A stretch of DNA of 228 nt from a phage. Below are positions 1-228 of this stretch, piece after piece. The DNA lies in sequence record K01277.1; one strand, written 5' to 3'. The notes under the pieces were generated by a model. The model saw only the letters and a list, made by a program, of their open reading frames with translations, was not told the DNA's origin and did not search any database. Both the position numbers and the translations under genes were made by a program. Numbering within the stretch: position 1 is the first letter of the stretch; each line of letters opens with the position of its first letter.

Positions 1-67
1 CACTGTCGGCGAAGGTAAGTTGATGACTCATGATGAACCCTGTTCTATGGCTCCAGATGACAAACAT
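1..67 (-). CDS. insH: IS5 transposase InsH/Ins5A, N-terminal fragment; 5' end of the gene, truncated by the window edge
   Basis: Minus-strand translation from the ATG at 67-65 gives MFVIWSHRTGFIMSHQLTFADS, the N-terminus of the longer annotated InsH form. A second in-frame ATG at 31-29 gives MSHQLTFADS, the shorter form. The frame stays open to position 1. Confidence 0.85.
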   Translation of the reverse strand, partial: MFVIWSHRTGFIMSHQLTFADS

Positions 68-83
68 GATCTCACATCAGGGA

Positions 84-99
84 CTTGTTCGCACCTTCC
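84..99. repeat. IS5 terminal inverted repeat (IRL, 16 bp)
   Basis: cttgttcgcaccttcc is the reverse complement of GGAAGGTGCGAACAAG. It lies at the outer boundary of the element, 17 bp outside the upstream transposase ATG. Confidence 0.85.
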
Positions 100-103
100 C
101 TAA
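100..103. other. Candidate IS5 target-site duplication copy (CTAA)
   Basis: The tetranucleotide ctaa directly abuts the IS terminus. IS5 is known to insert at C(T/A)A(G/A) sites, most often CTAA, and duplicate 4 bp. The other junction is outside the window, so the duplication itself is unverified. Confidence 0.45.
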
Positions 104-112
104 GTGATCCCC

Positions 113-213
113 ATGTAATGAATAAAAAGCAGTAATTAATACATCTGTTTCATTTGAAGCGCGAAAGCTAAAGTTTTCGCATTTATCGTGAACGCTTTCG
201 CGTTTTTCGTGCG
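113..213. promoter_or_regulatory. Putative intergenic regulatory region: AT-rich tract followed by operator-like repeats; locus identity unknown
   Basis: All three forward frames hit stops within 100-135 and no ORF with a start codon and ribosome-binding site is present. 113-158 is AT-rich (aataaaaagcagtaattaatacatctgtttcatttgaa). The motif TTTCG recurs three times (175-179, 196-200, 205-209), each within a Y-TTTCG-YR context, and overlaps the inverted repeat. No confident -35/-10 pair could be assigned. Confidence 0.3.
160..202. repeat. Perfect 9-bp inverted repeat (cgcgaaagc at 160-168, gctttcgcg at 194-202) separated by 25 bp
   Basis: Direct reading: the reverse complement of 194-202 equals 160-168 exactly. 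A nested 6-bp stem (161-166 gcgaaa / 175-180 tttcgc) with an 8-nt loop is also present. The repeat is certain; its function is unknown. Confidence 0.6.
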
Positions 214-228
214 CCGCTTCACTCGGCC

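Follow-up and report, generated by a model that had tools for sequence, protein, structure and literature searches.

The repeat cluster in a 228-bp phage sequence is most probably the right end of bacteriophage Mu with its three MuA sites, next to an IS5 insertion in the tail of mom

The ends of bacteriophage Mu, together with the sites at which the transposase MuA binds them, have served since the 1980s as a textbook model of DDE transposition. The terminal CA has an established role in cleavage and strand transfer, and the 50-bp segment containing the sites R1 and R2 is sold commercially. The name and the inverted orientation of the third right-end site, R3, reportedly go back to Craigie, Mizuuchi and Mizuuchi 1984; its designation and accessory role are reportedly described by Craigie et al. 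1984 and by Allison and Chaconas 1992. In minimal in vitro transposition the last ~50 bp of the R-end, which carry R1 and R2, suffice as donor (PMC1475752). MuA forms a tetramer in which the catalytic subunits work in trans (PMC3362531), and in the strand-transfer complex (PDB 4FCY) the R1-bound subunits are catalytic, while the R2-bound subunits are structural and not catalytic (PMC9308760). Cleavage and joining take place at the terminal CA and give rise to a 5-bp target duplication (PMC1475752).

Binding sites of this type are also annotated in the related phage D108, whose record (GQ357916) lists two right-end features as 'transposase-binding site' with the Mu consensus YMyNwRAARYRCGAAAR. 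Several sites of ~20 bp at the element end are likewise found in Tn7-like elements, which carry arrays of sites for TnsB, a DDE transposase with two DNA-binding domains that is structurally similar to MuA (PMC9308760). Compared with the sequence studied here, the Tn7-like ends differ in the element itself and in the sequence, number and spacing of the sites; there is no sequence relationship, and the likeness is one of working only.

The sequence analysed here, referred to as the window, is a stretch of phage-derived DNA of 228 bp in total. Two mobile elements meet in it, followed by a few flanking bases; it comprises an IS5 copy inserted in the tail of mom, an intact Mu attR and a short flank. 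The features are as follows, with all positions counted in the window:

1–99, minus strand: IS5 terminus, 98/99 identity to the IS5 of phage P1 mod749::IS5
100–103: IS5 target CTAA, corresponding to Mu 36595–36598
100–107, plus strand: 3' end of mom (..CCT AAG TGA) with the stop codon at 105–107, from the alignment to Mu
108–145, plus strand: non-coding stretch separating mom from the transposase sites, identical to Mu
146–167, plus strand: putative MuA site R3, TGTTTCATTTGAAGCGCGAAAG, corresponding to Mu 36641–36662, inverted with respect to R1 and R2
174–194, minus strand: putative MuA site R2, CGTTCACGATAAATGCGAAAA (minus-strand reading), corresponding to Mu 36669–36690, 21 nt instead of 22
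195–216, minus strand: putative MuA site R1, CGGCGCACGAAAAACGCGAAAG (minus-strand reading), corresponding to Mu 36691–36712, 6–27 from the terminus
217–221: terminal 5 bp of Mu with CA-3' at 220–221; position 221 corresponds to Mu 36717
222–228: non-Mu flank CTCGGCC, host or target DNA, without counterpart in the Mu record

Positions 98–221 align with Mu 36593–36717 (AF083977 / NC_000929) in the Mu plus orientation with 124 of 125 positions identical, and position 221 is the equivalent of the final base of the Mu genome (36717). The CDS of mom, the last gene of Mu, ends at Mu 36602, which is position 107 of the window, and the body of the gene is split from its 3' end by the IS5 insertion. The repeat region lies downstream of mom, 5–75 bp from the end of the element. 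On the basis of this alignment, positions 146–221 most probably represent the Mu right attachment end (attR) with three MuA sites of ~22 bp, and we put the probability of this reading at roughly 0.97. Nothing was found that contradicts the identification as Mu. Both the left end of this element and MuA lie outside the 228-bp window. A Mu attR with R1–R3 is already known, and the only oddities of the present copy are the IS5 upstream of it and a one-base deletion in R2.

The earlier note had drawn attention to a dense cluster of inverted and direct repeats in this region, and the coordinates that it gave for them are all correct. The 9-bp inverted repeat at 160–168 (CGCGAAAGC) is the exact reverse complement of 194–202 (GCTTTCGCG) with a spacer of 25 bp, the nested 6-bp hairpin pairs GCGAAA at 161–166 with TTTCGC at 175–180, and the only TTTCG copies of the window start at positions 175, 196 and 205, at distances of 21 and 9. 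Using a repeat finder we found that the inverted repeat is longer than first described, with 12 nt at 157–168 and 194–205 (92%), and that a 21-nt direct repeat is present at 170–190 and 191–211 (81% identity). The feature as a whole extends beyond its initial limits, from position 146 at the left edge of R3 to position 221 at the Mu terminus. Regarding significance, an inverted repeat of at least 9 bp occurred in 3.4% of 2000 dinucleotide-preserving shuffles of the 55-nt segment, and a 5-mer present at least four times in 57% of them. The repeats in the form first described are thus of modest significance, whereas the longer true unit is clearly not due to chance.

The window was searched for this unit with the 17-nt Mu transposase-site consensus YMYNWRAARYRCGAAAR, as cited in the D108 record, allowing at most one mismatch. 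Exactly three matches were obtained, two of them perfect (R3 at 151–167 on the plus strand and R1 at 195–211 on the minus strand) and one with a single mismatch (R2 at 174–190 on the minus strand); no consensus match was present in 200 shuffles of the window. In Mu, counted from the right terminus, R1 occupies positions 6–27, R2 positions 28–49 and the inverted R3 positions 56–77. R1 and R2 abut each other head to tail, proceeding inward from the terminus, and R3 has the opposite orientation. All repeats that had been noticed, and the 21-nt direct repeat as well, follow from this arrangement. The 9–12-bp inverted repeat arises because the R3 core faces the R1 core, and the 6-bp hairpin because the R3 core faces the R2 core. 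The TTTCG copies are due to the CGAAA cores of R2 and R1 and to a second CGAAA within R1, and the 21-bp spacing reflects the R2–R1 phasing, which is 22 bp in Mu and 21 bp here as a result of a 1-nt deletion. The repeats could in principle be a chance product of a skewed local composition, and the shuffles of the 55-nt segment (3.4% for the 9-bp inverted repeat, 57% for four copies of a 5-mer) would agree with this, but the three 17-nt consensus matches against none in 200 shuffles, the conservation of the sites across ten elements and the presence of the motif at the other end of Mu, both detailed below, reduce this explanation to a practically negligible one.

The density of the repeats had been taken in the earlier note as typical of the binding sites of a dimeric or oligomeric regulator, that is, of a transcription-factor operator. 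The part of this proposal that concerns binding sites for an oligomeric protein stands; the operator does not, the sites being those of MuA, R1, R2 and R3. As an independent test, both strands of Mu (~73,000 positions) were scanned with a matrix derived exclusively from the three sites of the right end. The best matches other than the sites themselves were 151–172(+) and 6–27(+), both located in the left end and oriented inward, and the next scores were at least 5 bits lower. R3 ranked as the third-best matrix match in the Mu genome. The left-end match at 6–27(+) mirrors the distance of R1 from the right terminus, and such a motif mirrored at both termini is the signature of transposase end sites and not of an operator. 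An operator controlling a neighboring promoter through a dimeric or oligomeric transcription factor could account for the dense dyad and direct repeats and for their conservation across related elements. It is nevertheless very unlikely: the sequence equals the Mu terminus and follows the last gene of the element, a promoter scan of both strands of the window gave no sigma-70-like promoter, the opposite Mu end carries the motif again at a mirrored distance from the terminus, and the homologous sites of D108 are listed in its record as transposase-binding.

Conservation was assessed in an alignment of ten right ends, from the window, Mu, SfMu, D108, Mu_3F6, the Yersinia phage vB_YpM_3 and four E. 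coli prophages that have diverged to differing degrees. Throughout this set there is strong conservation from R3 across R1 up to the terminal TTCA, with no variation in the R3 core GAAGCGCGAAA, the R2 core TTTTCG and almost the whole of R1. The segment to the left of R3 (108–145) is the most divergent part among the Mu-type elements and is unrelated in D108. At the other side, the similarity of all ten elements ends exactly at position 221, directly behind the CA at 220–221, which fixes the boundary of the element. The flanks beyond this point are unrelated, some of them being interrupted genes (flhA, yeaE), and the flank CTCGGCC of the window is unlike those next to the other Mu copies that were compared. 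Conservation and coding were the two points on which the operator proposal was to be judged: the repeats are kept in related elements, and the Mu annotation has no coding sequence here, mom ending at 36602. Neither outcome speaks against binding sites.

Compared with the Mu reference (36641–36717), the window shows the same order and orientation of the sites, the same distances to the terminal CA and the same adjoining mom end. The reference has AAA where the outer edge of R2 in the window has AA, and R3 of the window lies one base closer to the terminus. The right end of D108 (GQ357916) shares the arrangement and the R1 and R3 cores with the window, and in both of them the RCGAAAR core of R2 begins 42 from the terminus. 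In contrast, D108 differs in the R2 sequence and in the R3–R2 spacer, in which an extra T puts R3 back at 56, as well as in its last gene, and it shows no relationship to the window left of R3.

The protein that binds this array is most probably a transposase building a transpososome and not a transcription factor. In the established Mu mechanism, MuA bound at the right-end sites would assemble together with left-end MuA and the enhancer into a tetrameric transpososome. The R1-bound subunit would nick in trans at the terminal CA (220–221) and join the 3' end to the target with a 5-bp duplication, while the R2-bound subunits would be structural and R3 would act as an accessory site.

The single difference between the window and Mu is located at the outer edge of R2, where GTGAAACG reads GTGAACG at 188–194 and one A is missing from the run at 191–192. 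This deletion reduces R2 to 21 nt and the R1–R2 phasing to 21 bp (22 bp in Mu). Scored with a matrix made from L1, L3, R1 and R3, the shortened R2 reaches 15.6 bits versus 21.1 bits for the R2 of Mu, and it exceeds every non-site position of the Mu genome. The deletion was absent from 40 E. coli Mu-type ends, none of which matches positions 150–221 perfectly, and the variant gave no exact match in viral, metagenome and genome contigs. The D108 record has AA at the same run, while the D108-like Mu_3F6 and vB_YpM_3 have AAA, and the T-run in the R3–R2 spacer comprises three or four residues among D108-like phages. The deletion may reflect either a sequencing error or a variation in homopolymer length that is tolerated. 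The activity data in the literature refer to the canonical 50-bp R-end (PMC1475752, PMC9308760) and not to the 21-nt R2 variant.

Opposed copies of a motif also raise the question of an RNA structure, and the region lies directly 3' of mom and on the mom strand. An R3/R1 or R3/R2 hairpin might have a role in addition to that of the transposase sites and end or stabilise the mom transcript in the manner of an intrinsic terminator. Two terminator-like pattern matches were found on the plus strand (161–180 and 187–202, against a shuffle mean of 0.2), and the RNA of positions 140–228 folds with -26.1 kcal/mol (z = -2.2; 4 of 200 shuffles fold as well). The 13-pair R3:R1 helix can be paired throughout the ten sequences (130 of 130 cells), with one double change from G:C to A:U in the ETEC-type lineage. 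This complementarity, however, follows automatically from two opposed copies of one binding motif. The double change is located at the consensus R, a position at which the protein site accepts G as well as A, and represents one evolutionary event, and for these two reasons it fails to separate RNA pairing from protein binding. Moreover, the long R3:R1 stem uses up the U-run and is followed by UCGUGCG, which is not U-rich, the tail behind 161–180 (ATTTATCG) makes a poor U-tract, and no Rfam family was matched. We know of no terminator reported at the Mu right end. On balance such an extra function is quite unlikely, and it would leave the role as transposase sites untouched. The only match obtained from Rfam at a permissive threshold was the SR6 antitoxin (18.8 bits versus a gathering score of 55, E = 0.54), which was rejected as a chance hit.

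The left part of the window contains the end of IS5. In the P1 record the annotated mobile_element boundary coincides with the base equal to window position 99, and a 4-bp target duplication is annotated next to it. The transposase (InsH) starts with an ATG at 31–29 and runs leftward, so that it reads away from the Mu end; the minus strand from 31 to 2 encodes MSHQLTFADS. Positions 84–99 form the 16-bp terminal inverted repeat CTTGTTCGCACCTTCC, and the sole mismatch to canonical IS5 in the 99-bp end is at position 75, with C for T (CTCACATCAG versus CTCATATCAG). Mu reads CCCTAAGTGA at the insertion point, with CTAA located two codons ahead of the mom stop. The element thus shows the terminal inverted repeat, the adjacent InsH start and a 4-bp target of the YTAR type (CTAA). 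CTAA at 100–103 would be one copy of the 4-bp IS5 target duplication, the other being located at the far end of IS5, beyond the window. The situation in P1 mod749::IS5, with IS5 at YTAR targets, is comparable in that a 4-bp target of the C-T-A-A type adjoins the IS5 terminus, and differs in that the IS5 target of the window is formed by the last codons of Mu mom.

IS5 is located 43 bp to the left of R3 within the last mom codons, and the insertion leaves attR intact. For the effect on mom we modelled a simple insertion at CTAA with the IS5 of P1 (L009 205–1399), as the other IS5 junction lies outside the window; this yielded a Mom protein of 266 aa with all 231 codons kept and a tail of 35 aa. 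The last Mom codon (AAG) is preserved and translation would read through into IS5, rather than being truncated, because IS5 starts with G. The IS5-Mu junction gave no exact match in viral, genome and metagenome contigs and was absent from the E. coli complete-genome, phage and plasmid records, none of which covers at least 80% of the window. A literature search on IS5 insertions within mom or near the right end of Mu turned up nothing useful. An insertion sequence 'IS121' has reportedly been described on Mu dI1(Ap lac). The first identity considered for the right part of the window was a glpFK control region with GlpR operators, which was discarded when BLAST assigned this part to Mu; IS5 insertions upstream of glpFK are known.

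Regarding the coding capacity, the window contains three ORFs of 25–28 aa, none of which is credible as a gene. The two on the plus strand are located within IS5, opposite the transposase start, and the 28-aa ORF on the minus strand (136–222) begins across the boundary between Mu and the flank. On the minus strand from 228 to 100, one frame is open through the entire Mu end from the flank inward (PSEAAHEKRESVHDKCENFSFRASNETDVLITAFYSLHGDHL). The protein-fusion vectors Mu dII and lambda placMu exploit a frame of this kind that stays open across the right end of Mu.

Mu prefers target sites of the form N-Y-(G/C)-R-N. The pentamer CTCGG at 222–226 fits this preference and is consistent with a genuine Mu transposition, as judged from one flank only. 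In E. coli S17-1 (NZ_CP040667.1; L002 3001–3140) a truncated MFS (TetA) gene, itself a neighbor of tetR(A), directly adjoins a Mu right end; this is the known RP4-2-Tc::Mu insertion. The window is not this Mu copy, as the flank there reads GCCGGCA versus CTCGGCC. Pieces of the Mu end were also encountered in two phage records. The Proteus phage vB_PmiA_PM1 (Autographiviridae; PQ065999.1 42010–42059, L014 131–180) contains an exact 50-bp Mu R1–R2 end inside a hypothetical protein, and the record of Streptococcus phage 36L (PQ621707.1 1–29) opens with 29 bp of the Mu R1–R2 end. Both look like leftover adaptors of MuA-transposon libraries in the assemblies.

The value of the window lies in a correct annotation, and it is not a place to look for a new regulator. 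We regard it as unlikely that the short R2 is a real allele with 21-bp phasing, or that the R3:R1 complementarity doubles as a hairpin or terminator of the mom RNA, and either of them, if true, would only slightly refine the picture of a system that has been studied very thoroughly. The R2 deletion together with the parallel in D108 is a small pointer to a tolerated change in R1–R2 phasing, and if the short R2 is real, the Mu transpososome would tolerate a 1-bp register change of its structural subunit.
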